A stretch of DNA of 64,000 nt, taken from the IMG/VR virus record IMGVR_UViG_3300001765_000038, positions 11,777 to 75,776 of that record. One strand, given 5' to 3'. Position 1 is the stretch's first letter, and every line of letters starts with the position of its first letter. The notes beneath the pieces were generated by a model. It was not told where the DNA came from. It worked only from the letters and a program-made list of their open reading frames with translations, and searched no databases. The stretch is from a virus (Duplodnaviria > Caudoviricetes). Of the stretch, positions 3,489-58,402 are shown in pieces. Position numbers and translations under genes: made by a program.

Positions 3489-3535
3489 AATATCTCCAAA
3501 GTAAAAATTTCAATTCACATGTTATTTATACCGAA

Positions 3536-5742: not shown

Positions 5743-5750
5743 TATTTATA
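5743..5750 (-). promoter_or_regulatory. T4-type late promoter TATAAATA
   Basis: Exact T4 late (gp55) consensus on the minus strand, 24 nt upstream of the fibre ATG. Confidence 0.7.
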
Positions 5751-8900: not shown

Positions 8901-11900
8901 ATCATTCAATTGATTAACATCTGGTAATGATTCACTATCAATCCATGTATCATAAGAAGGAAATATATTTAATGATCCAGTACGTTTCTTAAGAGTTGAA
9001 AATGGAGTGACACTGTTAGGTGTTGTTGCAATTTTGTTTGATGATACCACAGCATCAATAAATGGTAATGTTACTAGATCACCTGTTACTTGATAATGTC
9101 TTGCTTTTCTCAATTCTGGTGAATCTTCTATTAAGTTTATATTAGCAACAGAATATGTTGGTCGGCATTCTTGTGTGTCGTAATCGATTGCAGCTTTAAA
9201 ACCTGGATCAGTCACGTTTGCTCTTGAATGATCAACAAATGTATCAATAAAGAATCCAGATTTAAATCTAGATAAACCATTTTCATCATAAACAGTAGAT
9301 GACTCAACTGAATTTGCGGCAGACATTGATAAACTCAAAACAGCATTGTTTAACCGCTTATCAATAGAACCAATAGCCCGCATGGTATAACCATTCATTC
9401 TTATTTCATCTAATTTTATATTTTTCGTAACGTCGATGATATATGGATCTAATGATATTTTAGCTATCGATGTATAAGTGGGCAGTGCTGTTGGAACTAT
9501 AGGCATGTCACTCGCATTACCGTTAGTAACTCGTAATGATCCAATGTCTCCCACTTGAAGAATATCATATCTTGGTAGATAATATTGATATGCTACTTCA
9601 ATATCAAAATTTGATGATAGCGGTTCTGTTACAGAAGCATTATTAAGTGTACCATCAGTAACAACTGTTGATTTTGTAGAACTAAATGATGTGTTCTTAT
9701 TGAGAACATAATTTCCATTTCCATCAATGCCCACATCAGAACTTTTAATTTGTAATGCTAATACATGATTATCATATCCTGATATATCACTCCAAACGCT
9801 CAATGTATCTAATTGAATTGGGCTAGATCTACTTATTGTTGAATTAATACCTAATTGACCCGCCCAGTTACTTCCCCATACCCACATTGTACCATTATTT
9901 TTGATTGCATATACAGAACCCCAATTAGTACCAATTTTATTCCAATCATTTAATGAACCAACTTGACATGGAGAAGATTGTGTAATAAGGTTGTTGCGAC
10001 CTAATTGACCATATTCATTTCTACCCCACGCCCATAATGTATTATCATTTTTGATTGCAAATACTGAATTCCAATCTTGTGTAACTGATTTCCAATCACA
10101 TAAACTTCCAATCTGTACAGGAACAGATTTGCTTGTTGGAAATTCTGTACTAAATTTCCCATCATTATCAAAACCCCAACCCCATAAAGTACCATTTGTT
10201 TTAATAGCAAAAAATGAAGATGCATATGCATTTTCACTTAATGTTCCCCAATCACTCATTGTACCTACTTGTGTTGGTGATGAACGATTATTAGTATCTC
10301 CTAATCCCAAATCACCGTACACATTATATCCACAAATCCATAAAGTGTTATCATCTTTAATTGATGCCCATGATGCATAACTACAAGTAATTTTATTCCA
10401 ATCACTCATTGTACCTACTTGTGTTGGTGATGAAAGATCTATATTTGATCCTTGACCTAATGATCCATATCCATCATATCCCCAAGTCCACAATGTTCCG
10501 TTAGTTCTTTTTGCTAATGCAAACAGATAACCGGCCGTAACTTTCTCCCAATTTCTTAAATTTTCGTTTGGATCAGAATCTAAACTTGCCATATCGCATG
10601 TTAAATTTACTGCTGTGCCGAGCATTGTGGGAGAAGATAAATTATAATCAGTTGTTCCGTGTCCTAACTTTCCATGTGAATCATAACCCCATGACCATAA
10701 TGACCCATCTTTTTTAATTGCATATGATGCAGCACCGCCCGCAACAATTTGTGACCAATCTGCTAATGATCCTATCTGTACAGGTGATGATTTGAAACTT
10801 ATTGAATTATCACCAAGTTGGCCATGTATATTATAACCCCAAGCATGTAAAGGTGATGTTGTTGCTTTTCTAATATAATTTGTTGAACTTGATGAATCAT
10901 TAGCAATATCTTCTGGCGGTGTAACACCATCTGCACTAATTTCTAATGCTAAACTAGCAGCAACTGGTCTAAAATCTAAATAATCACTAATCAATTTGCC
11001 TTTATACACAGGCATTTTTTCTAATGGAAGATTATATGAATCAACTGACATATAATCACCATCTGAATGTTCATAATAATTGAAAGTTATTTGAATAGGT
11101 GCAGCTGGTTCAAAACTGTTAATACTTGTTATAATACTGTTGTCATAATAGAAATCATTTATATTCGGTGACAGACGGTATTTGTCTGTAATATCTAATT
11201 CATTAAGCGCTGAATATTCAACAAAAGTATTTCTAAAATTTAAATTAAATTTTGCACCACCTGATTCTCTTATAGAAAGAATCGAAATCACATCAGGTGT
11301 ACCCAAATCAATTTCTGATTTATGCACACTGTTTAATGTATTAAAATAAACTGTTTTTATTTTTTTAGTTTTTGTTTTTTCTTTTACTGATTGTTTGCTC
11401 TTTTTGACTGGTACAATTGCTCTATACATTGTATCTGGGTTCAGATTTTTAAATGTAACTTGTTTAAAATCTGAACTAAGAATCATATTATCACTTGAAG
11501 GAACTGGATTAGCAGTAAGTGAGTTATCAATCAATGCAATATGTGGTAAATCAGTACCTTGTAAATATAATGCATATCCATCCATGAATGCATTTTGAAT
11601 ATCAATCAATGATGTAATTTGAGCAGGACTTGAACGATCAACAATATCACCTAAACCCAATTGCCCAGTATCATTATAACCACAAGTCCAAACTGTATTA
11701 TCATTTTTAATAAGCATTGATGAATATGTGCTAGCGTCTGCAGACGCCCAATCACTTAAAAATCCTACTTGGGTTGGCGCTGAACGATGAACAATATCAT
11801 CTATTCCTAACTGACCATAATCATTTCTTCCCCACGCCCATGCAGTTCCATCAGTTTTTGTTACTATCGTCTGACCATAACCACAAGCAACTTTATTCCA

Positions 11901-31258: not shown

Positions 31259-31266
31259 TATTTATA
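31259..31266 (-). promoter_or_regulatory. T4-type late promoter TATAAATA
   Basis: Exact consensus in the PAAR-gp25 intergenic gap, pointing towards gp25. Confidence 0.65.
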
Positions 31267-31570: not shown

Positions 31571-34500
31571 TTATTCCCTTGTATGTTGTTTGACTTTATC
31601 GATAAGTTTTCCATTGAAAACTCCCCAATTATCTCTTACTGTAATCTTTAATGGGATTGTTGTAGTAAATGGTTCAACCGTTGTGGTAGTACCGCCGACG
31701 CCACCTGTATCTGATAATTCAATGATGCCTTTAAATGTAGGATTTTGTGCTGATATATCAACCCATTTATATTGAGGGCCGATTTGCACTGGGCTAGAAT
31801 AAATTATTGTATTTCCTTGACCTAATTCTCCATTAACATTATAGCCCCAACCCCATAATGCTCCTGTATCATTAAGCATATAATAATTACCTGCTAATGC
31901 AGACACTTTAGACCAATTACTTAATGTACCAATTTGAATTGGCGACATCATAAAATGATCAATTCCATGATTAATAAAATCATTATTTAAATAATTACCA
32001 TATGTTTGTAAATCCCCCCAACCCCATAATGTACCATCTGTTTTTACTGCCATCGTCAAATCATTAAAATAACCACATGTTATCTGTTTCCAATTTGTTA
32101 ATGTACCAATTTGTGTTGGGCTAGATATACCAAACACAGTTATATGATCTGATACATATCCCAATCCTAATTTTCCATAATAATTAGAACCACAACCCCA
32201 TAATGTGCCATCAGTTTTAATTGCTAACAAATCATCTCTAAAATTAGAACCTAATTTGCTCCAAGTAGTTAAAGATCCAATTTGAGTAGGCGATGAAACT
32301 GAATTAGTATGACCAAGACCTAAACAACCAGGTGTATTATACCCCCAACCCCATAATGAGCCATTAGTTTTGATTGCAGCTACATTATTATTTGTTCCTG
32401 AAATACTCGCCCAATCACTCATTGAACCAACTTGAGTAGGACTTGATCTTAAAATTTCATCTCCTAAACCCAAAGCACCACCGCTGTTTTCACCCCAACC
32501 CCATAATGTGCCATCTGTTTTGATTGCATTAGTGCACTGTTGTTTCCATGATCCAATTATTTGAGTCGGACTTGAACGATGAATTATATCACCAGTTCCT
32601 AATTCACCATTTCCATTCCAACCTGTCGCCCACAATGAATTATCCGCTCTGATACCCAATGTTGAATATGAATCACTAACAGAAGACCAATCATTTTTAT
32701 CACCTATTTGTATTATAACATGATGATCTATGGTATCACCTGTACCTAACTGACCGAACATATTAGATCCACATCCTACTAATACTCTACCAGTACCAGT
32801 TATAGGGGTGTCTGGTGGTGTTATTGGTGTACTATCAGTGATACCCAACCAATAAGTATGACTTCCACTAACATCTTTCCAAGTACTCAATGTACCTACT
32901 TGCATCGGTGCAGAAATTTCCCATACAGTATCATCTGGTGTTATCATTTGATCTGTATTATAACCACATGCCCATAATGTACCATTAGTTTTAATCATCA
33001 TCATGCAATAATGACCAGATGATGCTAATTTATCCCAATCACTTAATGATCCAACTTGTGTAGGAGAAGATTTATCAATACTATCTCCATGGCCTAAAAT
33101 GTTTCCACCATTGTATCCCCAAGACCATAATGTACCATCTGTTTTGATAGCAAAACTAGCAGAACCGTCAGCATGTACTTGTTTCCAATTACTTAATAAA
33201 CCAACTTGAGTTGGAACATCTAAATTTACAGAACTAGTATTTTGTCCTAAAACACCATCTACATCTCTACCCCAAGACCATAATGTACCATTAGTTTTAA
33301 CTGCTAAAGTGTGATATTCGTTAACAGATGCCTGTTTCCAGTTTAAATCAGTGCCAATTTGAACAGGTGATGAAACACCAAGATCAGTAATAGCACCTAA
33401 TCCCAACATAGTGTTTTCCCAATCCCAACCCATCACCCATAATGATCCATTATTATTTAATAATATTGTTCGATTAGATTCAGCTGTCCATGCTTTTGAC
33501 CAAGTATTCCCACCAGCAATTTGTACTGGTGAACTTATAGGAATATTTGGATTCATTCCTAATTCACCAGAATAATTATAACCCATACCCCATGCTGTGC
33601 CATCAGTTTTTATCATAACTGTAGTCATTGCACTACAATGCACATATGCCCAATCATTTGATGTTCCAACTTTAATAGGAGTTGATACATTATAAACATA
33701 TCCATTATAAGGTGTTTGTCCCCACACCCATAACGACCCATCAGTTTTAATACCGTTAGAATTATATGCATATCTTTCAGATGGTGCAGCTAATTGTTTC
33801 CAATCGACATTAGAAATTAATTGAACGGGTGATGAGTATTGATTATTAATTTCACCGATACCTAATTCGCCTGACCAGTTTGTTCCGTTGCCCCAACCAG
33901 CAATATTAGATGGTGGTGTATCATCTGTTGTCGCTAACCATGCATAACCTGCACCCCAAACTTTACTCCAATTACTCAATGTTCCAATTTGAATTGGTGA
34001 CGAGTGATTTATTTGATTAAGTATAGCCCCATTCGATGTATATGCGTAATTAGTTTCACCCCATGCCCATAATGTGCCATTAATTTTTCTTGCTATAAAT
34101 GATCTCCATGGGACGCCTCCCCCACCAATTTCACCCCAATCGCTCAATGTTCCAATTTGAACAGGTGAAGATAATTCAAAATTTGGATCAATTGTACGCT
34201 CTGCAGCACAAACAGTCTTGAGTAATGAATAACTAGTTCCACCCCATCCCCATAAGGTATTATTATTCTGTATCCCATAAACTGTGGAATCATCACAAGT
34301 TACATTTTTCCAATTACTTAGTGTCCCCAGTTGAACTGGCGAAGATGTTGATTGAGTAGTAAAACTATTTAATAAAAGATTTCCATAAAAATTAACACCC
34401 CAACCCCATAATGTATTGTTAGTTTTAATTGCTGTAGAATATTCAGTGCCTATAGCAATAAACCTCCAATCAGTATCTACACCAATTTGCACTGGAGAAG

Positions 34501-37500
34501 ACATGCTAGTATATCCATTTACCCCTTGTCCTGTTTGTCCTCTATTATTGTTTCCCCATCCCCATAATGTGTTATTTTCTCCAATGGCAATTGTATGATA
34601 ACCACAAACCACTTTATTCCAAGTTGTTTTTGTTCCAATTTGCACCGGACTTGATCGTGAGAAATAATCACCTATACCACCTTCTCCAAAACCATTATAA
34701 CCTATCATCCATAAAGTATTATCTGATTTAATTCCCATCATTGTTGAACCATGACAATTAACACTTTCCCAATTTCCGGTGTTGCTTATCATTACTGGTG
34801 CACTAACAGACTTATTATATGCTCCATATATGTTTCCAACTCCCCATAAATTTTTATTTTTATCAATAAAAAATGATGCTGGGACATCACCAGAAGTACA
34901 CATATATGTCCAATTACTACTTAATTGAACGGGTGATGAATAATTAGTATAATCTGCCTTATCGAGTGCTGGGAAGTAACCAGCACCCCAATGTTTAATA
35001 TAAGTAGGTGCCGGCGCCGGCGCCGGCGCCGGCAATATTTCTCTTGTTGCTAATGTAACATTATCATATGATGATATTTCATTCCAATCACTTAATGTGC
35101 CAATTTGAATTGGCGATGAATAATCGAGTGTATTAGAAGCTCCTAATGAGCCCCATACTACACCTTCACCACAAGCCCACAATGTTCTATCAGTTTTAGT
35201 GGCAAATAAAGCTGAATCACCTATTTCAACCGATCTCCAGTTATTCAAACTGCCAATTTGAGTGGGAGATGATCTGTGGATCTTATCTCCCAGTCCTAAA
35301 CCACCATCACCATTCCAACCCCAAGACCATAATGTACCATCTGTTTTAACAGCTCCAGTAGAATAATAAATTGATACTTGTTCCCAGTTACTTAAAGTAC
35401 CAACTTGTGTTGGTACTGAATACCCGAGTATGTTTTCTAATCCCAATTGCCCATGTGAATTCCAACCCCATGCCCATAATGTACCATTAGTTTTTACTGC
35501 CATTGTGCTAGCATATTCTCCAGCTGATATTTGTTTCCAATTAAATCCTGTACCAATTTGAACTGGACTTGAACGATTAATATCATCACCCAATCCAAGC
35601 TCTCCAGATTCATTTTCACCCCAACCCCATATTCCACCACCTATACTTTTTGCAATTGTATGATAATATCCACAAGAAACTTTATCCCAATAATCTAATA
35701 TTCCGATTTGAATTGGTGAAGAACGATTATCAGCATAACCAGATATACCGTTACCCAAAGTACCTATCCAATTATATCCACATGACCATAATGTACCATC
35801 GGTTTTAACGGAAACAAAAAATCTTCTTCCCGCAGAAATTTGCTTCCAATTACTTAAAGTACCGACCTGACATGGAGAAGAACGATTATTATAAACATCT
35901 CCTAAACCTAAACCACCTTCACTATTAGCACCCCAGGACCATAATGTCCCATTTGTTTTGATACCATATGATGATTGATAATATTCTTCAATAGTATTCC
36001 AATCATTTAATAGTCCAACTTGAACTGGACTAGAACGATCTAAATCATCATTTGTTCCTATTTGACCCCATGTATTTGCACCCCATGCCCATAATGTATT
36101 GCTTGTAAGTGGAGGTGCATTTACAGTAGTTTTAAATCCGAAAAAATAATCTGCATCAATAATTGCTTTTTCCCATGTATTTTCTATACCAATTTGTACT
36201 GGAGAAGATACATAATTTACAATTTCCCAGTCACCCAAATCAAATCCGGGATTTAATCCCCATCCCCACAAGGTTCCATCTGTTTTAGTTGCAATAACAT
36301 TATCCCATGAAACAAATACTGTTTTCCAGTTATTTAATGCTCCAATTTGACGAGGAATAAATGTATCTAATGTTTCAGGTGATGTTATATCAGGTAAATA
36401 TCCGTTATGATCATTACCCCATCCCCACAGTGTTCCATCAGTTTTAATTGCAATATTATAATCATAATGAGAATCAACAAATGACCAATTGCTCAATGTT
36501 CCAACTTGAGTTGGACTAGAACGATCAATATAATCACCCAATCCTAGTTGTCCATTTATATTCCACCCCCATGTCCATAATGTTCCATTTGTTTTGATTG
36601 CTTTAACACTCTCAACACTTGCGGCAACTTGTTTCCAATCATTTGACGTACCAACTTGTATTGGAGAACTATAACGATAAGCACCAATTGTAGTACCGGT
36701 AAGTATTCCATAATCATCTTGTCCCCAACCCCATAATGTGCCATCTGTTTTAATTGCGAAATGTGCCCACACCCAACCATATGGTTTACCAGAAACAGAA
36801 CTCCAATCACTTAATGATCCAACTTGAATAGGTGATGAATATCTAATCGTATTACCAACTCCCAATAATCCATCCCAATTATAACCACATCCCCATAATG
36901 TTCCATTAGTTTTAATTGCTAGCCAACTCCATTCAGCAGCTGATGATACTGTTTTCCAATTATTTAATAAACCTATTTGACATGGAGATGATCTTTCAAT
37001 ATTATCACCAAATCCAATTATAGAATCTCTGTTCCCGCCCCATCCCCATAATGTACCATCAGCTTTAGTTGCAACTACACTATTATCCCAACCAGATGAA
37101 TTTAATATTGCTATCGAACTCCAATTATCACCAACATGTTCAAATTTGAAATAACCATCTGCATTACCAACACCTGCAGGTCCAGTACTGTCACTTAAAG
37201 GTATTTGATCATATCCACAGAACCATAATTCATTTGATGGTGTTACTTGTACTGGACTAGATATTACTGGTGTTATTGGTGTTAATGTATCATCAGTAAT
37301 GCCAATCCAATGATAAGAATTACATGATACTTGCGTCCAATTAGAAAGAGATCCAAGTTGAACAGGTGAAGATTTATTTTCATTTATTAATTGATCACAC
37401 CCCGCAATATCACCCCATGCCCATAATGTACCATTAGTTTTAATAGCAAAGGTTCTTTCACTGCCCCAACCACCAGTATGATTATTTGATAATTTACTCC

Positions 37501-40500
37501 AATCGCCTAGCAATCCAATTTGAGTTGGTACATCCACATATGTTCCAGTACCACCACCCTGACCAGAATTACCTATACCCCACGTCCATAATGTGCCATC
37601 TGTTTTAATTGCTGTTGATTGAGAATATCCACAAGAAATAATATTCCAATTTGTGGCAGTTCCAATTTGAGTGGGAGAGGATCTACTAAACTGATCTGCT
37701 TGACCTAACGCACCATTTGCATAACTACCCCAACCCCATAATGTTCCATCAGTTTTAATCGCTATACTAAATCTTCCACCACATGATACTGTTTTCCAAT
37801 TATTCATTGTTCCTACTTGTGTAGGACTAGAACGATCATCCCAATTATCACCCAATCCTAATTGGCCATCAGATGTACTTCCCCATGACCATAATGTGTT
37901 ATCAATTTTAATTGCTAATGAGTGTGTATCACCTGGTGCAATATCTTTCCAATTGGTTGAAGTGCCTACTTGAGTTGGACTAGAACGATTTTCATACAAT
38001 GTTCCATGACCAAGCATTCCCCAATCATCATTACCCCAAGTCCACATTGTACCGTCAGTTTTGACTGCCATAACATGATCACGGTTCATTGCAATTGTTT
38101 TCCAATTGCTTGTATCACCTACTTGAGTTGGACTAGAAATTCCCATAAATTGACCTGAAGAAGTATAACCTAAACCCAATTGACCTACATCATTATATCC
38201 ACAACCCCATAATGTGCCATCAGTTTTAATAGCAAATGATTGCTCCCATTCACCTGTTGCAATATATTTGTAATCATCTCCTAACATTAATATTGGACTA
38301 GTATACTGTATTCTATCACCATGTCCTAATTCACCACCATCATTATAACCACAACCCCATACTTTTAAAGGTGATGGTGGTTTTATGTAAACTTCACCTT
38401 GAGATGCAAGTGTTGCATACATTGATGATTCTACTTTATTCCAATTACTCAATGTTCCAACTTGGCAAGGAGATGATCTATCAATATTATCACCTAATCC
38501 ACAATTATTATGATATTGTGTATTTTGACCCCATGTCCATAATGTTCCATCTGTTTTTGTTGCTGCGGCAGCATAACCACAAGCAATATCTTTCCAATTT
38601 GTCATTGATCCAATTTGAACAGGTGAAGATCTATCAATATTATCACCCATTCCTAATCTTCCATGGAAATTTTCTCCCCATGACCATATTGTGCCATCAG
38701 TTTTAAGAGCTAAAGAATATCTACAAAATGTTTTTTTAGATACTTTATTCCAATTTGACATTAATCCTATTTGTATAGGAGAAGATATATTTGTTACTAA
38801 ATCACCACTAATTCCATTGCCAAATTCGCCTCTAGTATTATCACCCCAAGACCATAATGTGCTGTCAGTTTTAATTGCATGAGCAACAAATTCACTTGCA
38901 TTTATTTGTTTCCAATTTGTTAATGATCCAATCTGCACAGGAGATGAAATTGCCTCCCAAAAATAAGTACCACCTGATGGTGCTGGCAATAATCCGTCAC
39001 TAGTATATCCCCAACCCCACAGTGTGCCATTAGTTTTAATAGCGAAAGTTGTGTTCATACCGCATGTTACTTCTTTCCAATCACTTAATGATCCTACTTG
39101 AATCGGTGAAGATGCCCATATTGTTTCTGGATATCCACATTTACCGCCACTATTATTTCCCCACACCCACAATGTTCCATCAATTTTAATTGCACCTACA
39201 TGATTTTCTACAGATACTTGTTGCCAATCAGTTAATGCACCTATTTGTATTGGAGAAGATTTTTTTTCATCATCTTCATAAAAATGTCCTGTTGATCCCC
39301 ATGACCACAATGTACCATCTATTTTAATGGCAAACGCATTATATTCGCCCAGAGAAAAATTATTCCAATTTTCTAATACACCAATTTGACAAGGAGATGA
39401 TCTATCAATCATATCACCTAAACCTAAACCACCATATTTTATACCCCATGAATATAATTTGCTACCACGAGAAAAACTAGAACATAATTTTTCTTCATAT
39501 CCTATAAACTCTGTAGTATTTCTTATTCCCATTGAATTATTATATGAGCATGAGATACTACTCCAATCGCTCAATGATCCAACTTGAGTAGGACTACTTC
39601 TACCATCAGATATTGTAGTTCCTATACCTAAATGATGTTGAACCCAATTTATACCCCACGCCCATAATGTACCATTATTCTTAATTGCGAAAGTGTTTTG
39701 TGCACCAACTTTAACATCTTTCCAATCAGTCATTGATCCTACTTGAACTGGGCTTGATCTAGCAATTGTATCATTAACTCCAACTGCACCATCAATGTTA
39801 GATCCCCACGCCCATAATGTACCGTCTGTTTTAATTGCTGCAGTGGCCATGTCAGATATTGCAACAGTTTTCCAATTGCTTAACAATCCAACTTGAGTTG
39901 GGCTAGATCTATTTATTGTATCACCCAATCCTAAACCAGCGCCCCATCCCACACCCCAAACCCATAATGTACCATCAGTTTTAATTGCTGCAGAATTAGC
40001 CCACATAGTAGAAATATGAGCCCAATCACTCAATGTTCCAAGTTGAACAGGACTTAAAGTATCGACACCTTCAACTCTTCCCCATCGCCATAAAGTATTA
40101 TTTGTTTTTATAGAATATGATATAAATCTACCGGCTATAATTTTATTCCAATCACTTAACAATCCAACTTGAACTGGACTAGATCGATAAATATCATCAC
40201 CTAACCCTAATTGACCCTCATCATTTGATCCAGTTGCCCATAGTGTTCCATTTGTTTTTGTCATTAATGCATGATAACCGCAAGATACATCTTTCCAATC
40301 AGTCATCGAACCAACTTGAACGGGTGATGATGAATAACCTATATAATTTCCAAAACCACCCCATACCCAATCATTTGATCCCCATGACCATAATGTGCCA
40401 TTTGGTTTTATTCCCGCACTTGTATAATTTCCTGGTGCTAAAACTGACCAATTGTTTAATGATCCAATTTGCATAGGAGAAGATATTCCCCAAATTGGTC

Positions 40501-43500
40501 GATCTCCAATACCTAAAGAACCGTCTAAACATTGCCCCCAACCCCATCCAGTTGTAGAAGTTACTATAACTGGTGATGAACATATATTTGGATCTGGGCA
40601 TGGTACATTTAACCAATTATTTGTTCTATTTTTAATAGCAAATGATCTATAATAAGTAGAATATGCATCTGACCAATTACTTAATGTGCCTACTTGTGTT
40701 GGACTTGAATAATTTATGTTATTTGTGTTTAGACCTAAACTGCCACCTTGAGCATTACCCCACGCCCAAAGTGTACCATCTGTTTTAATTGCTGCACTAT
40801 AGTAACCACATGTTATTTTTGCCCAATTTGACATTGAACCAATTTGACATGGAGAAGATTGATGAGCAAAATTACCAGCATATCCTAATCCTAAATCTCC
40901 ATTCCAATTTCCACCCCATGACCATAATGTGCCATTTGTTTTAAGTGCGAGTGTATGCCAACACCCAGGTTTTATATCTGCCCAATCTGACATTAGTCCG
41001 ACTTGCGTAGGACTAGATCTCCAAATTTCATTACCTAATCCCAATGCACCCATCCATCCAGATCCCCACATCCATAATGTGCCGTCTGTTTTAATTGCAC
41101 CTACGGGTGGTGCATTAAGTGAATACCAAGTAGATAATTTTGCCCAATTTGACATTGATCCAATTTGACATGGACTCGAGCGATCAATTTGGTCACCAAG
41201 TCCAAGAGGCCCTTGCCAACCCCAACCCCACGACCATATAGTGCCGTCTGTTTTAAGTGCGTGAAATATATTATCATCACATGCATTTATACTTTTCCAA
41301 TTACTTAATGATCCAAGTTGAACTGGACTAGATTCAGCATAATTTGTACCGAGTGTGCCAAACGCACATTGAGAATTATACGCACCCCAATACCATAACG
41401 TTCCGTCAGTTTTGATACCCAATGTCGCCGTTTCAGCACATCTTACTTCTTTCCAATCGCTTAATGTTCCTACTTGTTGAAAATCATAATTGTATGCAAA
41501 AAGTGAATGCCCGAGGCCGAGCATACCATCCCAGTTTAATCCGTTAGCCCATAATGTTCCATCATCTTTAATAACAAAGAAAGAATCCCAATTGCCTGAT
41601 ATTTTATCCCAGTTTGATTCTATACCTATTTGTACTGGTGATGAAATGTCTGTACTTACAATTTCATCTTTATAACCAGAATACCACAATTCACCACCCA
41701 TTTGTACGGGAGATGAACATGTTACTGGTAATGTATCTTCTCCAGTTAATCGTATTCCTCTGAACGAACCCCATCCACAAGTTATGTCAGTCCACGTAGA
41801 TAATGTGCCAACTTGACAAGGACTAGAACGATCAAATACATCATTCAATCCAAGTTGACCACCATTATTTTCTCCCCAGGTCCATAAAGTACCGTTTGTT
41901 TTAATAGCATATGATGATTCAACACAATAATTTTCTATTTCTTTCCAATCACTTAATGTGCCAACTTGACATGGACTAGAACGATTAATATTATCATTTA
42001 ATCCTAAAAGACCTTTAGAATTATCACTACCCCATGTCCATAAAGTACCGTTTGTTTTAATTGTAAGTGCATGTGCGGTTCCGCATGCTAATTTATTCCA
42101 ATCAGTTAATGCACCTATTTGTGCTGGACTAGATCGCCATATATTATCATTATGTCCCAATTGACCCTGTTCATTATATCCCCAACTCCAAATACTATTG
42201 TCTAATTTTAAACCAACTACTGCATTACTTAAAAATTTAGCTGTTTTCCAATTTGCTTCTGGATCAGTACAAGTTTTTGTTCCAGTAAGTCCTACAGCTT
42301 TAAAAAATTCTTGTCCGACTTTTAACCAATTACTTAATGATCCGATCTGTATTGGAGAAGATATTACACTATCTGAAAAATTATTTCCTCCCAATAAATA
42401 AGTATAATTACCAGTTTGTGAATAAAACGGATATCTATTTGATCCCCAACCCCATAATGTTCCATCAGTTTTAATTCCATAATATATTGGTAAATTAACA
42501 TCTTCTTTATTCGACCAAACTGTTTTCCAATTTGATAAATTGCTTATCATAATTGGTGTAAGTATTGGTGTAGTAGATCCATTTAATAATTCTTTTTCAT
42601 AGGGTGATCCCATACCCCATAACGTCCCATTAGTTTTTACTGCTATTGTGCAATGAAAACTCATTGCAACATGTGACCAATCACTCATTGATCCAATTTG
42701 CACTGGTGAAGAAATATCATTTTGATGACCAATACCCAAATTACCAAAATAATTGCTGCCCCAACCCCATAATGTGCCATCAGTTTTAATTGCTACTGCT
42801 GATTGGTCAGATGTAAAAATATTTTTCCAATCATCTAAAATACCAACTTGAAATGGTATTTCATGTTCTTGATTTGAAGAATTTAATCCTAATTGCCCAT
42901 GAGTACCAAGCCCCATTCCCCACAACTTACCGTTACTTGTAATGCCCATTACTGTTTCATTACCACCAACTGAAACATCTTTCCAATTACTCATGGTTCC
43001 TACTTGACAAGGACTAGAACGAGATATTCCACCAGTATTAATACCTAGCCCCAACGATCCGTAATAATCATTACCCCATGTCCATAATGTACCATCTGAT
43101 TTAATAGCAGCATTAGTTGAATAACCACAAGATATTGTTTTCCAATCAGTCAATGTTCCAATTTGTATTGGACTCGAATGATCAATTGTATCACTTTGAC
43201 CCAATTGACCATCGTGATTACGACCGTTTGACCACATTGTGCCATCATTTTTAATTGCAACCCAATGATAATCACCACATCCAATATCTTTCCAAACTGT
43301 TGTTGTATCAGTTATGGAAATTGGAGTTGGATTATTAAATAATCCATTTACTAGTTCACCATAATAACTTGCACCCCAACCCCATAAATTACCGATTGCG
43401 ACTGGTGATACTGATGGTGTTCCATGGATGCCCATAGTATGAACTAACCAATTATGTGCTACTTTAGTCCAATCACTATATGTGCCTACTTGAACAGGTA

Positions 43501-46500
43501 AAAAATAATATGTTGCTGAATAAGGAAGACCTGCTTGACCAGAATCATTTCTACCCCAGCCCCATAAAGTACCATTTGTTTTAATACCATTAACAATTGT
43601 TTCACCACCGAGCGAACATGATACTTCTTTCCAGTCTGAAGCAGAACCCATTTGTACTGGTGATGAAATAGTTGGTTGCCCCCATGTGTAAGAATTTCCC
43701 CACCACCATAATGTTCCATTTTGTTTAACTGCATATGCATTTGCCTCTGCTAATGCACATTGACTCCAATCACTCATTGATCCTATTTGAATAGGACTCT
43801 GAACATTAGCTGTAAGTGTATCACCCCAACCCCACAATGCACCAGTAGTTTTAACTGCAAGAGCACCACTGCCACTTGCACATACTTGTTTCCAATCTGT
43901 TGATGTTCCAAGTTGTGTATGTTGTAATAACGGTGATTGAAATATATCATATAATTCATGATCACCTGATACCCAAAGAGTATTGTTTTCTCTTATTCCA
44001 TATGAAGCACCATAACTACATGATATTTGACGCCAATCACTGAAATTACCCACTTGAGCTGGAGATGATATTAAATCATATTCAATACCTAAACCAAAAA
44101 TAGATGAGTTGGGATTACCTTCATTTTCACCTAATGCCCATAATGTTCCATCTTTTTTAATTAACATTGTGCTAAATGATTCATTGACAACTACTTTGTT
44201 CCAATCAGTTAATGAACCAATTTGAACTGGACTTGAACGGTATACTTGATCCCAAAGATTAATATTGACTTGACCATGATTACCTCTCCAATCTCTACCA
44301 CAGAACCATAATGATCCATCATCTTTAATACCTGTCCAAAACCAATATCCACAACTAATATCTTTCCAATTTACACTTGGTGGTGCGACCTGAATAAATC
44401 CATATTGTTCATAATTAGGTGCTGTGCCATCACCAACAGTACCATGAGATATCCAACCTGTAATCATTAAATTACCATTTGTCGCTGTTGTTACATTTTG
44501 AGTTGCATCATTTGAAATAGTGCATACTAAATTATCTTGTGGTGCGCCCTGTGTATATGATATTGTTCCTAATTGAACTGGTGAAGATCTGTTAATATTA
44601 TCACCTAATCCTAAATTACCATCGCCGCCATATCCAATAACTAACGTTCTATTATCATTAGTTAAAACTGTTATTTGTCCAAAATCAGCTGAGGTTGTTA
44701 TTGATTTCCAATCATATCCTATATTGGTTAATGTAGTTAAAACTCCAGTATTTACAGTTGTATATCCTAATAGATTACCGTAATCATCATCGCCGGCTGC
44801 CCATACTTGGTTATATGTATTAAATGCATATATATTAGTAGCCCCAGCAACAACATTTGACCAATTAGATAATGATCCTATTTGTACTGGACTAGAATAT
44901 ACAATGTCTATTCCAGTACCAAGATATCTTCCTCTTCCAATACCCCATAATGTACCATTTGTTTTAATTAATACAGTATTATCAGTACTGTTACTACTAG
45001 AAATTTTATTCCAATCACTTAATGACCCTATTTGAGTAGGAACAGAACGATTAATATTATCACCAAACCCTAAATAACAGCCCCAATTATATCCCCATGC
45101 CCATAATGTACCATTTGTTTTAATTGCATGATTTCTAGCATATGCTGGAGCTAATACTTTCCAATCAGTATCTACACCAACTTGAACAGGACTAGATCTA
45201 CCAATACCAGAAACACCTAAACCGAGACTTCCACTATAATCAGTTCCCCAAGCCCATAATGTACCGTCTGTTTTAATTGCAGAACCACAACTCCAACCAG
45301 CATATATTTCTTTCCAATCATTAGAGGTTCCTATTTGAGTTGGAGATGTATATGTGTCCCAAGTTCCTAAACCTAATGTACCACCAAAATCACCCCACGC
45401 CCATAATGTACCATTTGTTTTTAGAGCGAAAGTTTCTCTAGTTTGGTTACCAACAATTTTTGCCCAATCATTTGATAAACCAACTTGAACTGGAGAAGAA
45501 ATAAATCTATCTGCCCATGGCGGTACTGTTGGGTAAAATGATGGGTCACCTGCAATATAACCATCTGTACAACCAGTAAACCATAAAGTACCATCTGATC
45601 TGATTAAATGTAAACCTAATCTAGACATTCCATATTCTTTGTAATACAATGAAGAAAATGTATTATTTGATGATAATTGAACTGGTGATGAATATTGAAT
45701 AGTTTGATCAGCTGAGTTACCTAATTGACCGCCAAAATTCCAACCCCAGATCCATAAAGTATTATCATTTTTAATTGCTAGAGTATTAGTATTATCATTA
45801 TTTGTGATAAATTTCCAATCAGATAAAGATCCTATTTGACAAGGACTTGATCTACTTATCATATCTCCCAAACCTAAATGACCACCTTCTGGTATACTGT
45901 TACCCGGCCAACCCCACGACCATATTGTACCATCTGTTTTTAGTGCAACTGCTTCTGCACCACTACCCCCATATATTTCTTTCCAATCATTAAGATTACC
46001 AACTTGAACTGGACTCGAATTTAAATAATAATCCCACGGAAACAGTGCATTGTATGCACAAGACCAAAGTGAATTATTATTTTTAGTAAGAAATGTTGGA
46101 TATCCATTAAATACCTTTGACCAATCATTTGGATTACCTAATTGAGTAGGTACTGAACGAGAATTAATATCACCAAGACCTAAATTACCATCACTATTAT
46201 AACCACAAACATATACAGTACGATTACTGCCACCACTTCCTAATGTTGTTTTTGTGCCAGTGATAGTTACTTGTGCATAATAGGGATATTGGTGATTCGG
46301 GCCTGTATATTGAAATATCTCTGATTCGATGGGTATATTATCAAAACTTTTTGATGTACCATATGTTATATCTGGATTGATAAATTGCATACCACGAGGA
46401 AATTTATCTTTCAATTCACCAAAATTGCCTTTGATATGAATTGTTGTGCCATCAACAGACGATTGAACACCTGCTTCTGAGGGCACAACAATCGACACAT

Positions 46501-46624
46501 GTTCAATTGATTGTGTTACCGCTGGATCAGTATTAGTATCAACAACATACACAACATTGTCGAATTGTGTAAGTTCAACCGCGTTTACCTTATCAGGATT
46601 TAAATTAAAATTTACATCAGTCAT
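31571..46624 (-). CDS. 5017-aa RCC1/BLIP-II repeat protein built on a gp5.1-like scaffold
   Basis: About 4850 aa of roughly 50-aa repeats (W..VSCG.....AIKTDGTLWAWG.N..GQLGLGD...RSSP.QVG.LS.W), flanked by about 130 non-repeat N-terminal and about 35 C-terminal residues; occupies the gp5.1 slot between gp5 and PAAR. Confidence 0.85.
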   Translation of the reverse strand: MTDVNFNLNPDKVNAVELTQFDNVVYVVDTNTDPAVTQSIEHVSIVVPSEAGVQSSVDGTTIHIKGNFGELKDKFPRGMQFINPDITYGTSKSFDNIPIESEIFQYTGPNHQYPYYAQVTITGTKTTLGSGGSNRTVYVCGYNSDGNLGLGDINSRSVPTQLGNPNDWSKVFNGYPTFLTKNNNSLWSCAYNALFPWDYYLNSSPVQVGNLNDWKEIYGGSGAEAVALKTDGTIWSWGWPGNSIPEGGHLGLGDMISRSSPCQIGSLSDWKFITNNDNTNTLAIKNDNTLWIWGWNFGGQLGNSADQTIQYSSPVQLSSNNTFSSLYYKEYGMSRLGLHLIRSDGTLWFTGCTDGYIAGDPSFYPTVPPWADRFISSPVQVGLSNDWAKIVGNQTRETFALKTNGTLWAWGDFGGTLGLGTWDTYTSPTQIGTSNDWKEIYAGWSCGSAIKTDGTLWAWGTDYSGSLGLGVSGIGRSSPVQVGVDTDWKVLAPAYARNHAIKTNGTLWAWGYNWGCYLGFGDNINRSVPTQIGSLSDWNKISSSNSTDNTVLIKTNGTLWGIGRGRYLGTGIDIVYSSPVQIGSLSNWSNVVAGATNIYAFNTYNQVWAAGDDDYGNLLGYTTVNTGVLTTLTNIGYDWKSITTSADFGQITVLTNDNRTLVIGYGGDGNLGLGDNINRSSPVQLGTISYTQGAPQDNLVCTISNDATQNVTTATNGNLMITGWISHGTVGDGTAPNYEQYGFIQVAPPSVNWKDISCGYWFWTGIKDDGSLWFCGRDWRGNHGQVNINLWDQVYRSSPVQIGSLTDWNKVVVNESFSTMLIKKDGTLWALGENEGNPNSSIFGLGIEYDLISSPAQVGNFSDWRQISCSYGASYGIRENNTLWVSGDHELYDIFQSPLLQHTQLGTSTDWKQVCASGSGALAVKTTGALWGWGDTLTANVQSPIQIGSMSDWSQCALAEANAYAVKQNGTLWWWGNSYTWGQPTISSPVQMGSASDWKEVSCSLGGETIVNGIKTNGTLWGWGRNDSGQAGLPYSATYYFLPVQVGTYSDWTKVAHNWLVHTMGIHGTPSVSPVAIGNLWGWGASYYGELVNGLFNNPTPISITDTTTVWKDIGCGDYHWVAIKNDGTMWSNGRNHDGQLGQSDTIDHSSPIQIGTLTDWKTISCGYSTNAAIKSDGTLWTWGNDYYGSLGLGINTGGISRSSPCQVGTMSNWKDVSVGGNETVMGITSNGKLWGMGLGTHGQLGLNSSNQEHEIPFQVGILDDWKNIFTSDQSAVAIKTDGTLWGWGSNYFGNLGIGHQNDISSPVQIGSMSDWSHVAMSFHCTIAVKTNGTLWGMGSPYEKELLNGSTTPILTPIMISNLSNWKTVWSNKEDVNLPIYYGIKTDGTLWGWGSNRYPFYSQTGNYTYLLGGNNFSDSVISSPIQIGSLSNWLKVGQEFFKAVGLTGTKTCTDPEANWKTAKFLSNAVVGLKLDNSIWSWGYNEQGQLGHNDNIWRSSPAQIGALTDWNKLACGTAHALTIKTNGTLWTWGSDNSKGLLGLNDNINRSSPCQVGTLSDWKEIENYCVESSYAIKTNGTLWTWGENNGGQLGLNDVFDRSSPCQVGTLSTWTDITCGWGSFRGIRLTGEDTLPVTCSSPVQMGGELWYSGYKDEIVSTDISSPVQIGIESNWDKISGNWDSFFVIKDDGTLWANGLNWDGMLGLGHSLFAYNYDFQQVGTLSDWKEVRCAETATLGIKTDGTLWYWGAYNSQCAFGTLGTNYAESSPVQLGSLSNWKSINACDDNIFHALKTDGTIWSWGWGWQGPLGLGDQIDRSSPCQIGSMSNWAKLSTWYSLNAPPVGAIKTDGTLWMWGSGWMGALGLGNEIWRSSPTQVGLMSDWADIKPGCWHTLALKTNGTLWSWGGNWNGDLGLGYAGNFAHQSSPCQIGSMSNWAKITCGYYSAAIKTDGTLWAWGNAQGGSLGLNTNNINYSSPTQVGTLSNWSDAYSTYYRSFAIKNRTNNWLNVPCPDPNICSSPVIVTSTTGWGWGQCLDGSLGIGDRPIWGISSPMQIGSLNNWSVLAPGNYTSAGIKPNGTLWSWGSNDWVWGGFGNYIGYSSSPVQVGSMTDWKDVSCGYHALMTKTNGTLWATGSNDEGQLGLGDDIYRSSPVQVGLLSDWNKIIAGRFISYSIKTNNTLWRWGRVEGVDTLSPVQLGTLSDWAHISTMWANSAAIKTDGTLWVWGVGWGAGLGLGDTINRSSPTQVGLLSNWKTVAISDMATAAIKTDGTLWAWGSNIDGAVGVNDTIARSSPVQVGSMTDWKDVKVGAQNTFAIKNNGTLWAWGINWVQHHLGIGTTISDGRSSPTQVGSLSDWSSISCSYNNSMGIRNTTEFIGYEEKLCSSFSRGSKLYSWGIKYGGLGLGDMIDRSSPCQIGVLENWNNFSLGEYNAFAIKIDGTLWSWGSTGHFYEDDEKKSSPIQIGALTDWQQVSVENHVGAIKIDGTLWVWGNNSGGKCGYPETIWASSPIQVGSLSDWKEVTCGMNTTFAIKTNGTLWGWGYTSDGLLPAPSGGTYFWEAISSPVQIGSLTNWKQINASEFVAHAIKTDSTLWSWGDNTRGEFGNGISGDLVTNISSPIQIGLMSNWNKVSKKTFCRYSLALKTDGTIWSWGENFHGRLGMGDNIDRSSPVQIGSMTNWKDIACGYAAAATKTDGTLWTWGQNTQYHNNCGLGDNIDRSSPCQVGTLSNWNKVESSMYATLASQGEVYIKPPSPLKVWGCGYNDGGELGHGDRIQYTSPILMLGDDYKYIATGEWEQSFAIKTDGTLWGCGYNDVGQLGLGYTSSGQFMGISSPTQVGDTSNWKTIAMNRDHVMAVKTDGTMWTWGNDDWGMLGHGTLYENRSSPTQVGTSTNWKDIAPGDTHSLAIKIDNTLWSWGSTSDGQLGLGDNWDDRSSPTQVGTMNNWKTVSCGGRFSIAIKTDGTLWGWGSYANGALGQADQFSRSSPTQIGTATNWNIISCGYSQSTAIKTDGTLWTWGIGNSGQGGGTGTYVDVPTQIGLLGDWSKLSNNHTGGWGSERTFAIKTNGTLWAWGDIAGCDQLINENKSSPVQLGSLSNWTQVSCNSYHWIGITDDTLTPITPVISSPVQVTPSNELWFCGYDQIPLSDSTGPAGVGNADGYFKFEHVGDNWSSIAILNSSGWDNSVVATKADGTLWGWGGNRDSIIGFGDNIERSSPCQIGLLNNWKTVSSAAEWSWLAIKTNGTLWGCGYNWDGLLGVGNTIRYSSPIQVGSLSDWSSVSGKPYGWVWAHFAIKTDGTLWGWGQDDYGILTGTTIGAYRYSSPIQVGTSNDWKQVAASVESVKAIKTNGTLWTWGWNINGQLGLGDYIDRSSPTQVGTLSNWSFVDSHYDYNIAIKTDGTLWGWGNDHNGYLPDITSPETLDTFIPRQIGALNNWKTVFVSWDNVIATKTDGTLWGWGLNPGFDLGDWEIVNYVSSPVQIGIENTWEKAIIDADYFFGFKTTVNAPPLTSNTLWAWGANTWGQIGTNDDLDRSSPVQVGLLNDWNTIEEYYQSSYGIKTNGTLWSWGANSEGGLGLGDVYNNRSSPCQVGTLSNWKQISAGRRFFVSVKTDGTLWSCGYNWIGTLGNGISGYADNRSSPIQIGILDYWDKVSCGYYHTIAKSIGGGIWGWGENESGELGLGDDINRSSPVQIGTGFNWKQISAGEYASTMAVKTNGTLWAWGWNSHGQLGLENILGYSVPTQVGTLSNWEQVSIYYSTGAVKTDGTLWSWGWNGDGGLGLGDKIHRSSPTQIGSLNNWRSVEIGDSALFATKTDRTLWACGEGVVWGSLGASNTLDYSSPIQIGTLSDWNEISSYDNVTLATREILPAPAPAPAPTYIKHWGAGYFPALDKADYTNYSSPVQLSSNWTYMCTSGDVPASFFIDKNKNLWGVGNIYGAYNKSVSAPVMISNTGNWESVNCHGSTMMGIKSDNTLWMIGYNGFGEGGIGDYFSRSSPVQIGTKTTWNKVVCGYHTIAIGENNTLWGWGNNNRGQTGQGVNGYTSMSSPVQIGVDTDWRFIAIGTEYSTAIKTNNTLWGWGVNFYGNLLLNSFTTQSTSSPVQLGTLSNWKNVTCDDSTVYGIQNNNTLWGWGGTSYSLLKTVCAAERTIDPNFELSSPVQIGTLSDWGEIGGGGVPWRSFIARKINGTLWAWGETNYAYTSNGAILNQINHSSPIQIGTLSNWSKVWGAGYAWLATTDDTPPSNIAGWGNGTNWSGELGIGEINNQYSSPVQLISNVDWKQLAAPSERYAYNSNGIKTDGSLWVWGQTPYNGYVYNVSTPIKVGTSNDWAYVHCSAMTTVMIKTDGTAWGMGYNYSGELGMNPNIPISSPVQIAGGNTWSKAWTAESNRTILLNNNGSLWVMGWDWENTMLGLGAITDLGVSSPVQIGTDLNWKQASVNEYHTLAVKTNGTLWSWGRDVDGVLGQNTSSVNLDVPTQVGLLSNWKQVHADGSASFAIKTDGTLWSWGYNGGNILGHGDSIDKSSPTQVGSLSDWDKLASSGHYCMMMIKTNGTLWACGYNTDQMITPDDTVWEISAPMQVGTLSTWKDVSGSHTYWLGITDSTPITPPDTPITGTGRVLVGCGSNMFGQLGTGDTIDHHVIIQIGDKNDWSSVSDSYSTLGIRADNSLWATGWNGNGELGTGDIIHRSSPTQIIGSWKQQCTNAIKTDGTLWGWGENSGGALGLGDEILRSSPTQVGSMSDWASISGTNNNVAAIKTNGSLWGWGYNTPGCLGLGHTNSVSSPTQIGSLTTWSKLGSNFRDDLLAIKTDGTLWGCGSNYYGKLGLGYVSDHITVFGISSPTQIGTLTNWKQITCGYFNDLTMAVKTDGTLWGWGDLQTYGNYLNNDFINHGIDHFMMSPIQIGTLSNWSKVSALAGNYYMLNDTGALWGWGYNVNGELGQGNTIIYSSPVQIGPQYKWVDISAQNPTFKGIIELSDTGGVGGTTTTVEPFTTTIPLKITVRDNWGVFNGKLIDKVKQHTRE
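35010..35033. repeat. (GCCGGC)x4 palindromic microsatellite encoding PAPAPAPA
   Basis: 24 consecutive G/C bases read directly at 35010-35033. Confidence 0.95.
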
Positions 46625-58394: not shown

Positions 58395-58402
58395 TATTTA
58401 TA
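58395..58402 (-). promoter_or_regulatory. T4-type late promoter TATAAATA upstream of gp32
   Basis: Exact consensus just downstream of the sigma70 -10 box. Confidence 0.6.

Follow-up and report, generated by a model that had tools for sequence, protein, structure and literature searches.

What kind of protein is encoded by a 15-kb open reading frame (ORF) that lies between the gene for the central spike, gp5, and the gene for its PAAR tip in a T4-like phage? The question is raised by a 64,000-nucleotide (nt) stretch of DNA, referred to here as 'the window' (positions 11,777 to 75,776 of IMG/VR virus record IMGVR_UViG_3300001765_000038). It comes from a 75.8-kb virus contig of an uncultured marine T4-like phage with a low GC content (32-38%). 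An earlier note on this DNA had singled the frame out, and it is indeed intact, at 5017 amino acids (aa; Table 1). The reading that we prefer, and to which we assign a probability of roughly 45% as a whole, is this: the giant ORF is a genuine late gene of the structural module; its product is a gp5.1 module, one loop of which holds 13 propellers of the RCC1 type; this module docks at the spike tip; and the propellers form a host-binding array that is displaced when the spike punctures the envelope.

The argument starts from the two ends of the protein, which are free of repeats. These had been proposed to resemble two parts of T4 gp5.1 (NP_049760, 164 aa; Pfam PF26906, phrog_1168). We compared them with a gp5.1 hidden Markov model (HMM) of 169 positions, made from 48 family sequences that include members from Aeromonas, Vibrio, Shewanella and Acinetobacter phages; the construct tested joined aa 1-135 of the giant protein to aa 4968-5017. 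The rejoined ends score 18.3 bits in one collinear alignment over profile positions 31-167, and 20.5 bits once two environmental gp5.1 sequences join the HMM. Alone, the N-terminal piece gives 12.3 bits (aa 37-131 against profile positions 31-124). The C-terminal piece aligns with the last ~35 positions of the HMM (motif GNWS.WA..LR.Y); by itself it is weak, at ~4 bits, a score reached by 6 of 5000 shuffles, but adding it to the N-terminal piece takes the score from 12.3 to 18.3 bits. In 5000 shuffles of the rejoined ends no score is above 10.0 bits, the ends read in reverse give -0.9, and the same N-plus-C construct made from the other 22 long ORFs in the window scores 4.1 bits at most. With hhalign, the rejoined ends align with gp5.1 over 124 columns across both pieces (probability 65%, P 6e-5). 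In a MAFFT alignment, G66, P98, P109 and V119 of the giant protein fall in columns that are invariant in the gp5.1 family, and its C-terminus, ITVRDNW...GKL, resembles the ITVQNDW...L of the environmental gp5.1 proteins at IMG/VR loci L045 and L086. The proposed resemblance is thus supported.

Gene order points in the same direction. Vibrio phage D481, Shewanella phage Thanatos-2 and Acinetobacter phages DP45 and 133 all have the genes for gp5, gp5.1 and PAAR in this succession. In IMG/VR, the order at L086 is phrog_350, gp5 (phrog_430), a 155-aa phrog_1168 protein, PAAR (phrog_281), gp25 (phrog_261) and gp6. Families and order are those of the window, except that a small gp5.1 stands where the window has the giant ORF; gp6 of this relative is 33% identical to that of the window. 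A 'tail protein' gene holds the place of phrog_350 in Vibrio phage D481. Among 63 IMG/VR loci with gp6 relatives there are two distinct small gp5.1 homologues (one at L045 and L086, the other at L054), and none of these loci has RCC1.

A model of the T4-type protein indicates where the propellers would be attached. AlphaFold2 (AF2), given a 17-sequence alignment, predicts an immunoglobulin (Ig)-like beta-sandwich, followed by a long beta-hairpin and a C-terminal helix (predicted local distance difference test, pLDDT, 83.6). The strands of the hairpin, 111-124 and 153-166, are linked by a disordered 28-residue loop, and in the HMM alignment this loop differs in length across the family, being almost absent in the Shewanella phage and ~28 aa long in T4. 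By the alignments, QYPYYAQVTITGTK and TTIPLKITVRDNW of the giant protein would be the two hairpin strands, and GVFNGKLIDKVKQ the C-terminal helix. Because the first two align with the strands, the 13 propellers would replace the loop at the hairpin tip. An insertion in the low-complexity loop of gp5.1 had been proposed from the sequence, and the AF2 model places the site at just this disordered tip. The accompanying image of 'beads on a string' needs changing: since both chain ends return to one hairpin, the array would be a closed loop of tethered beads, not a string with a free end. The profile match, its shuffle controls, the hhalign result, the synteny and the AF2 model of gp5.1 together make it very probable that the ends are gp5.1 homologues, with the insertion at the hairpin loop.

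The gp5.1 fold itself is a generic Ig-like sandwich. With the gp5.1 model as query, Foldseek gave no match in the PDB at E ≤ 0.001, and a VIA-wide search returned just generic Ig-like sandwiches (best Z 8.3, to SraP modules and to Ig domains). BFVD has further models of this fold, from Acinetobacter, Aeromonas and Campylobacter phages and from Prochlorococcus phage P-HM1. The protein from the last of these (E3SMR3, 169 aa, Foldseek E 2.4e-5, TM ~0.5) is labeled 'Putative RTX toxin'; the fold is thus probably also present in marine cyanomyoviruses, misleadingly annotated.

A number of points weigh against our reading, and we set them out together. At 18-20 bits the profile scores are low as absolute values, and they are significant only as a targeted test. 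BLASTP gives no alignment of either end with T4 gp5.1. PHROG and Pfam give no family match for the separate end pieces, even at E 10. The AF2 model of the N-terminal 136 aa of the giant protein, made with the gp5.1 alignment, has a pLDDT of 46.5, too low to be informative. The contig is a metagenomic fragment, for which CheckV estimates a completeness of 46%. And the spike could penetrate only if an appendage of ~540 kDa at its puncturing tip were first moved out of the way.

The low bit scores, and the failure of library HMMs at both ends, would also suit a different explanation, namely that the ends are not gp5.1 at all: a separate RCC1 fibre gene, its two termini orphan sequences, would lie between gp5 and PAAR by chance, and the profile match would be fortuitous or compositional. 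Searches for relatives of the N-terminus lean the same way. With its first 140 aa, phmmer found no credible homologue among 1.84 billion representatives (there were two matches, both repeat-driven artefacts); with its first 150 aa, tblastn found no match in 50,697 phage records; IMG/VR yielded no relatives to the N-terminus; and the ESM Atlas gave no usable match to the N-terminus. We nevertheless judge this explanation improbable. The alignment is collinear over both ends and falls on the conserved motifs of the family, the shuffles come nowhere near the observed score, relatives with identical gene order have a small gp5.1 in the slot, and the two pieces match in length the segments that flank the disordered loop in the gp5.1 model. 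The PHROG scan lacks phrog_1168 for both protein halves (E limit 0.01) and for the end pieces (up to 10); such curated library scans cannot see the domain whole, because 4835 aa split it. The Pfam copy used, moreover, is probably without PF26906, for T4 gp5.1 itself gave no PF26906 match there. Longer forms of gp5.1 (325-2000 aa) are absent from the family alignment, which is weak evidence.

Between the ends, from ~aa 137 to aa 4971, the giant protein consists of 4835 residues of RCC1 repeats, 91 blades or 13 x 7. RCC1 models of Pfam match along the whole protein except at its ends: on the two protein halves, PF25390 (RCC1-like domain) scores 874 and 1026 bits (cut-off 150), and PF00415 scores 505 and 627 bits (cut-off 21.7). 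A blade HMM made from the giant protein itself gives 94 matches, which reduce to 91 SSPxQ-phased units, of which 28 fall within aa 137-1631 and the other 63 within aa 1632-4971. The earlier estimate of roughly 85-95 blades in about 13 blocks was therefore accurate. A 370-position block HMM for seven-blade units matches nine units end to end, at 430-491 bits each, with boundaries at aa 1632, 2007, 2372, 2747, 3114, 3502, 3864, 4235, 4599 and 4971. Pairwise, these nine are 33-46% identical (mean 40%). Short Pro/Thr linkers separate the regular propellers; the nine linkers quoted in the earlier note were all located (aa 1068, 1632, 2007, 2747, 3114, 3502, 3864, 4235 and 4599), and the unit boundaries coincide with them. 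The same note described blocks of mostly about 350 aa, a description that suits the nine clean units of ~370 aa but not the first 1500 aa of the array, which are not four simple blocks. There, linkers at aa 1068 (GTPSVSPV) and aa 1448 (GTKTCTDPE) flank a seven-blade unit, aa 1069-1448, and pieces of ~3.5 blades lie to either side of it (aa ~903-1068 and 1449-1631). The blade counts and linker positions suggest that this unit is nested within another propeller, split in halves. The stretch with this putative nesting, aa ~903-1632, corresponds to 41729-43918 (minus strand) of the window.

Each blade combines a nearly frozen scaffold, SP.Q.G....W...........A.K..G.LW.WG.....G.LG, with highly variable loops. 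By per-blade entropy, the conserved positions are S1, P2, Q4, G6, W11, W31, G34 and G42; positions 13, 15-22, 35-40, 46 and 48 vary most (entropy 3-3.8 bits). The division into conserved frameworks and variable loops had been recognized before, but the loops are only mildly aromatic (F+W+Y 11%), and consist mainly of Ser, Thr, Asn and Asp (35%). Among solved structures, 31 PDB sequences match one unit at E ≤ 1e-5, the closest being UVR8 (E 5e-41), HERC1/2, RPGR and RCC1. An analogy with BLIP-II-type propellers, which bind penicillin-recognising enzymes, had been drawn; BLIP-II is not among the 31, nothing connects the giant protein with such enzymes, and we set the analogy aside as unsupported.

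Could the array be an artefact? The contig is metagenomic, and a 4198-aa gene call in a public protein collection begins inside the gene, at Met820. Both would be in keeping with an inflated or chimeric product of short-read repeat assembly, or with a decaying gene, and the earlier note had itself raised mis-assembled repeat expansion as a danger. We consider this very improbable. The frame remains open across 15 kb in an AT-rich genome. The longest exact internal DNA repeat is only 34 nt, and just eight 31-mers recur, which makes repeat mis-assembly unlikely; DNA copies of the repeat are 60-85% identical, over stretches of <135 nt, and the protein units have diverged to the identities given above. 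The gene call in question, P0049, is recorded on 2 contigs, the longest of 76,651 b. It is exactly aa 820-5017 of the giant ORF, and so leaves out aa 1-819 (44166-46624 of the window, minus strand). Its internal start could be due to a sequence variant upstream, or to the choice of the gene caller.

The neighbours of the giant ORF are those of a T4-like baseplate. On the minus strand the order is gp48, gp53, a phrog_350 tail protein, gp5, the giant ORF, PAAR, gp25, gp6, a 2070-aa protein at the position of gp7, and gp8. Against the phage and IMG/VR collections, gp6 of this phage reaches only 33-45% identity at best; megablast of the gp48-gp5 region gives no match in the phage collection, and a scan of IMG/VR with gp5 gives no relatives. 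Among cultured phages, Pelagibacter phage Mosig, the Melnitz phages of Methylophilales and cyanomyoviruses come nearest. The genes are tightly packed, with 3 nt between the gp5 stop and the ATG of the giant ORF, and 2 nt between its stop and the start of PAAR; from this, the giant ORF is probably co-translated with both. The sequence TATAAATA, the T4 late-promoter consensus, is rarer in the window than expected (4 matches versus 14.65). All four are on the minus strand (3523-3530, 5743-5750, 31259-31266 and 58395-58402), and at least three occupy gaps just upstream of minus-strand ORF starts in the ORF table, a distribution that fits late promoters of the T4 type. A pattern search of the window finds no copy directly upstream of the giant ORF, so this is probably co-transcribed with gp5. 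The gp5 protein extends ~290 aa past its Gp5_trimer_C match, and aa 756-905 are similar to a PHROG 'endolysin'; no lysozyme domain was detected at the usual T4 position. In the L086 relative, gp5 has the same C-terminal extension.

Table 1. Positions in the window of the giant ORF, its parts and other features discussed in the text
Feature	Position	Strand	Basis
Giant ORF	31571..46624	-	ATG start, 5017 aa, without internal stop
N-terminal gp5.1-like part (aa 1 to ~131), ending QYPYYAQVTITGTK then GSGGSN	46232..46624	-	gp5.1 HMM; MAFFT
RCC1 blades 1-28, four propellers with irregular boundaries (aa ~137-1631)	41732..46216	-	Blade HMM and linker positions
Nine regular seven-bladed RCC1-like propellers (aa 1632-4971), 362-388 aa each	31712..41731	-	Block HMM, PF25390, PF00415
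C-terminal gp5.1-like part (aa 4972-5017): Gly/Thr linker, strand TTIPLKITVRDNW, helix GVFNGKLIDKVKQ	31574..31711	-	End of gp5.1 HMM
gp5 baseplate hub/spike protein, 912 aa	46628..49366	-	phrog_430 E 4.8e-90; Pfam Gp5_OB 77 bits; Gp5_trimer_C aa 551-622
phrog_350 tail protein, 426 aa	49338..50618	-	phrog_350 E 4e-79; upstream of gp5
PAAR spike-tip protein (gp5.4 equivalent), 97 aa	31275..31568	-	phrog_281 E 2.4e-25; PF05488 56.2 bits (cut-off 27)
TATAAATA between PAAR and gp25	31259..31266	-	Pattern search; putative promoter
DUF4815 protein with RCC1 propellers, 2355 aa	5949-13016	-	PF25390, best stretch aa 137-470
DUF4815 paralogue, 2153 aa	14835-21296	-	Comparison with the 2355-aa protein

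RCC1 propellers are not confined to the giant ORF. The larger of the two DUF4815 proteins of the window carries an RCC1 insertion of ~446 aa between the motifs YLDFRP and TEPLSS, which in its paralogue are ~10 aa apart. That RCC1 propellers are recurrent loop-insertion cassettes in this phage can be regarded as established. Elsewhere, single RCC1 propellers occur among the baseplate and tail-fibre genes of two freshwater cyanomyoviruses (Synechococcus phages S-SRM01 and BUCT-ZZ01), and the marine virus AG-345-E08 has many separate RCC1 genes of ~390 aa. Two of the giant protein's units matched 693 proteins of 2759-8780 aa at E ≤ 1e-10. The closest of the large relatives (2825-4655 aa, 36-41% identity) are on phage-like contigs, with genes for Phage_tail_APC chaperones, for LamG or S74-type fibres, and for methyl-, glycosyl- and sulfotransferases as neighbours. 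Searched with the gp5.1 HMM and with the ends of the giant protein itself, none of the best 120 of the 693 has ends like those of gp5.1, apart from the window's own product, P0049. In four metagenomic loci (L022, L023, L025 and L026) and in S-SRM01 (L014), Phage_tail_APC chaperone genes precede the RCC1 genes, and methyltransferase, glycosyltransferase, sulfotransferase and APS-kinase genes repeatedly follow them. A glycan-modification operon was reported on the window's own contig in the earlier note, and one possibility is that propellers or fibres are glycan-decorated.

How might such a protein act? In the reading that we prefer, the gp5.1 module would anchor a few copies (1-3) of the giant protein at the tip of the central spike or close to it. 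The propellers, each with its own face of variable loops, would present a multivalent or multispecific array to ligands on the host surface, and this array would be stripped off as the spike punctures the envelope. We infer incorporation into virions, docking on PAAR or gp5, and the binding of ligands from the features described above; that the array is an adhesin for several receptors is plausible. Concerning T4 gp5.1 itself, a paper of 2026 (PMC13611949) presents an AlphaFold3 (AF3) model in which the protein sits on one of the side faces of the PAAR pyramid, and notes that it has no assigned cryo-EM density. The same paper says that particles without gp5.4 are also without gp5.1, a statement that we did not find in the preprint it cites (bioRxiv 10.1101/2025.08.28.672839). 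To call gp5.1 'baseplate-associated', as the earlier note did, goes beyond what is established: T4 reconstructions have no density for it, and its AF3 placement is a model.

Two other roles need to be considered. The giant protein might not belong to the virion; its gp5.1 module would then help in assembly or work inside the cell or in the periplasm, and the propellers would bind host proteins, or inhibit them, in the course of infection, which is the 'inhibitor array' of the earlier note. In favour of this, T4 baseplate maps have never shown gp5.1, and eukaryotic RCC1-like domains are platforms for protein interaction. We think it quite unlikely, given the late structural operon with gaps of only 2-3 nt to gp5 and PAAR, the presence of other phage RCC1 proteins in tail-fibre modules, the lack of similarity to BLIP-II at E ≤ 1e-5, and an N-terminus in which, judged by eye, there is neither a signal peptide nor a hydrophobic stretch. 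Alternatively, the array might be carried on the virion for a purpose other than receptor binding. It could bind matter in the surroundings, such as marine gels and mucus, particles or cells that are not hosts, and so raise the rate of encounter, or act as a steric cap or sensor that holds the spike until displaced. The large contour length and the closed-loop topology inferred for the array, which is not fibre-like, suit such a role; the variable faces, rich in Ser, Thr, Asn, Asp and Tyr, resemble generic binding surfaces, and other large fibre-like proteins, including the RCC1-bearing DUF4815 protein, could be the primary receptor binders. Against it, adjacency to the spike genes fits a role in infection, and the 33-46% identity among units suggests that distinct specificities were selected, not bulk stickiness. 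This, too, is unlikely. The host-binding reading can also be extended: gp5.1 would be a general adaptor of T4-like phages for docking cargo on PAAR, here carrying 13 receptor-binding propellers, each of a different specificity, in a closed loop round the tip. We regard the extended form as doubtful. Were it true, it would represent a central multi-receptor appendage of a kind undescribed for contractile-tail phages, and would explain what one of the old ORFans of T4 does.

RCC1 arrays in phage tail modules were already known, and so was gp5.1. What is new is the combination, and with it the ~30-fold expansion of a conserved ORFan of the spike locus by way of one loop. We found no description of a gp5.1-RCC1 combination in the literature, and no second example in the collections searched. 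The earlier note's remark that no phage appendage like this had been described is accordingly too broad for the array, since RCC1 giants of 2800-4650 aa occur in the tail-fibre modules of other uncultured phages; the novelty lies in the gp5.1 scaffold and the spike locus. The giant gene, at 15 kb, takes up ~9% of the ~165-kb genome implied by the CheckV completeness of 46%, and an outlay of this size points to strong selection for it. Mattenberger et al. (bioRxiv 10.1101/2025.08.28.672839) name genes 5.1, 5.3 and 5.4 as the ORFans of T4 that have late promoters, and gp5.1 is conserved across the Straboviridae. If a natural relative carries 540 kDa of binding domains on the gp5.1 hairpin loop, then gp5.1 probably serves as a structural adaptor, its loop exposed and tolerant of insertions, rather than as an enzyme or a regulator. 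This role can be tested directly in T4, and we see the main value of the finding in this testable hypothesis for gp5.1. More broadly, the emerging picture of RCC1 propellers as modular binding cassettes of aquatic phages is extended to the central spike locus; in this phage the same cassette sits in loops of no fewer than two distinct virion proteins, the virion location being conjectural for the giant.

It remains to compare the giant protein with known systems. Among RCC1 proteins, the seven-bladed architecture is shared with the eukaryotic RCC1-like domains (RLDs) of UVR8, HERC1/HERC2, RPGR and RCC1 itself. Those are single propellers of cellular signalling proteins, however, and neither guanine nucleotide exchange nor UV sensing is supported for the giant. 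BLIP-II, a beta-lactamase inhibitor from Streptomyces, is comparable in general terms, as a seven-bladed propeller with a binding role that in the giant would be putative, and differs in being absent from the PDB sequence matches to a unit at E ≤ 1e-5. The jumbo coliphage phAPEC6 encodes many RCC1-like propellers too, eleven in all; its virion proteome table includes ~40-kDa 'DNA condensation' proteins, and its authors propose a DNA-organising role for the RCC1-like proteins (PMC7247149). In phAPEC6 these are eleven separate single-propeller genes, without a gp5.1 context. A further group is the RCC1 proteins of phage tail-fibre regions (gp335, gp337 and gp344 of S-SRM01, those of BUCT-ZZ01 and AG-345-E08, and the metagenomic giants). 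They belong to the same blade family (37-43% identity to single blocks), are found in virion tail modules, and include multi-propeller arrays of similar size. Unlike the giant, they are free-standing genes or arrays, with other anchor domains or none, and none of those examined lies between gp5 and PAAR.

At the spike locus itself, the counterpart is T4 gp5.1. It has the same slot between gp5 and PAAR and a collinear profile match at both ends; its motifs (Y/F)G.(Y/F), F..(L/I)P, (Y/F)....P and (G/D)NW....(K/N)L match the ends of the giant protein, and a Gly/Ser-rich stretch at the start of the hairpin loop is common to the two. The differences are of scale and divergence: 164 aa with a loop of ~28 residues in T4, a loop of 4835 aa in the giant, and pairwise identity of ~15%. 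A precedent for enlargement at this locus comes from phage RB43 (orf205w) and Klebsiella phage Helios (gp203), where a protein of ~690 aa stands in place of genes 5.1-5.4 (bioRxiv 10.1101/2025.08.28.672839; PMC13611949). Both cases mark the 5.1-5.4 locus of T4-like phages as a hot spot at which a spike-tip accessory is remodelled into a large protein. The outcomes differ: in RB43 and Helios the protein is largely alpha-helical, replaces PAAR as well, and is modelled as a sharp tip, whereas here PAAR is kept, and an array of beta-propellers is added.

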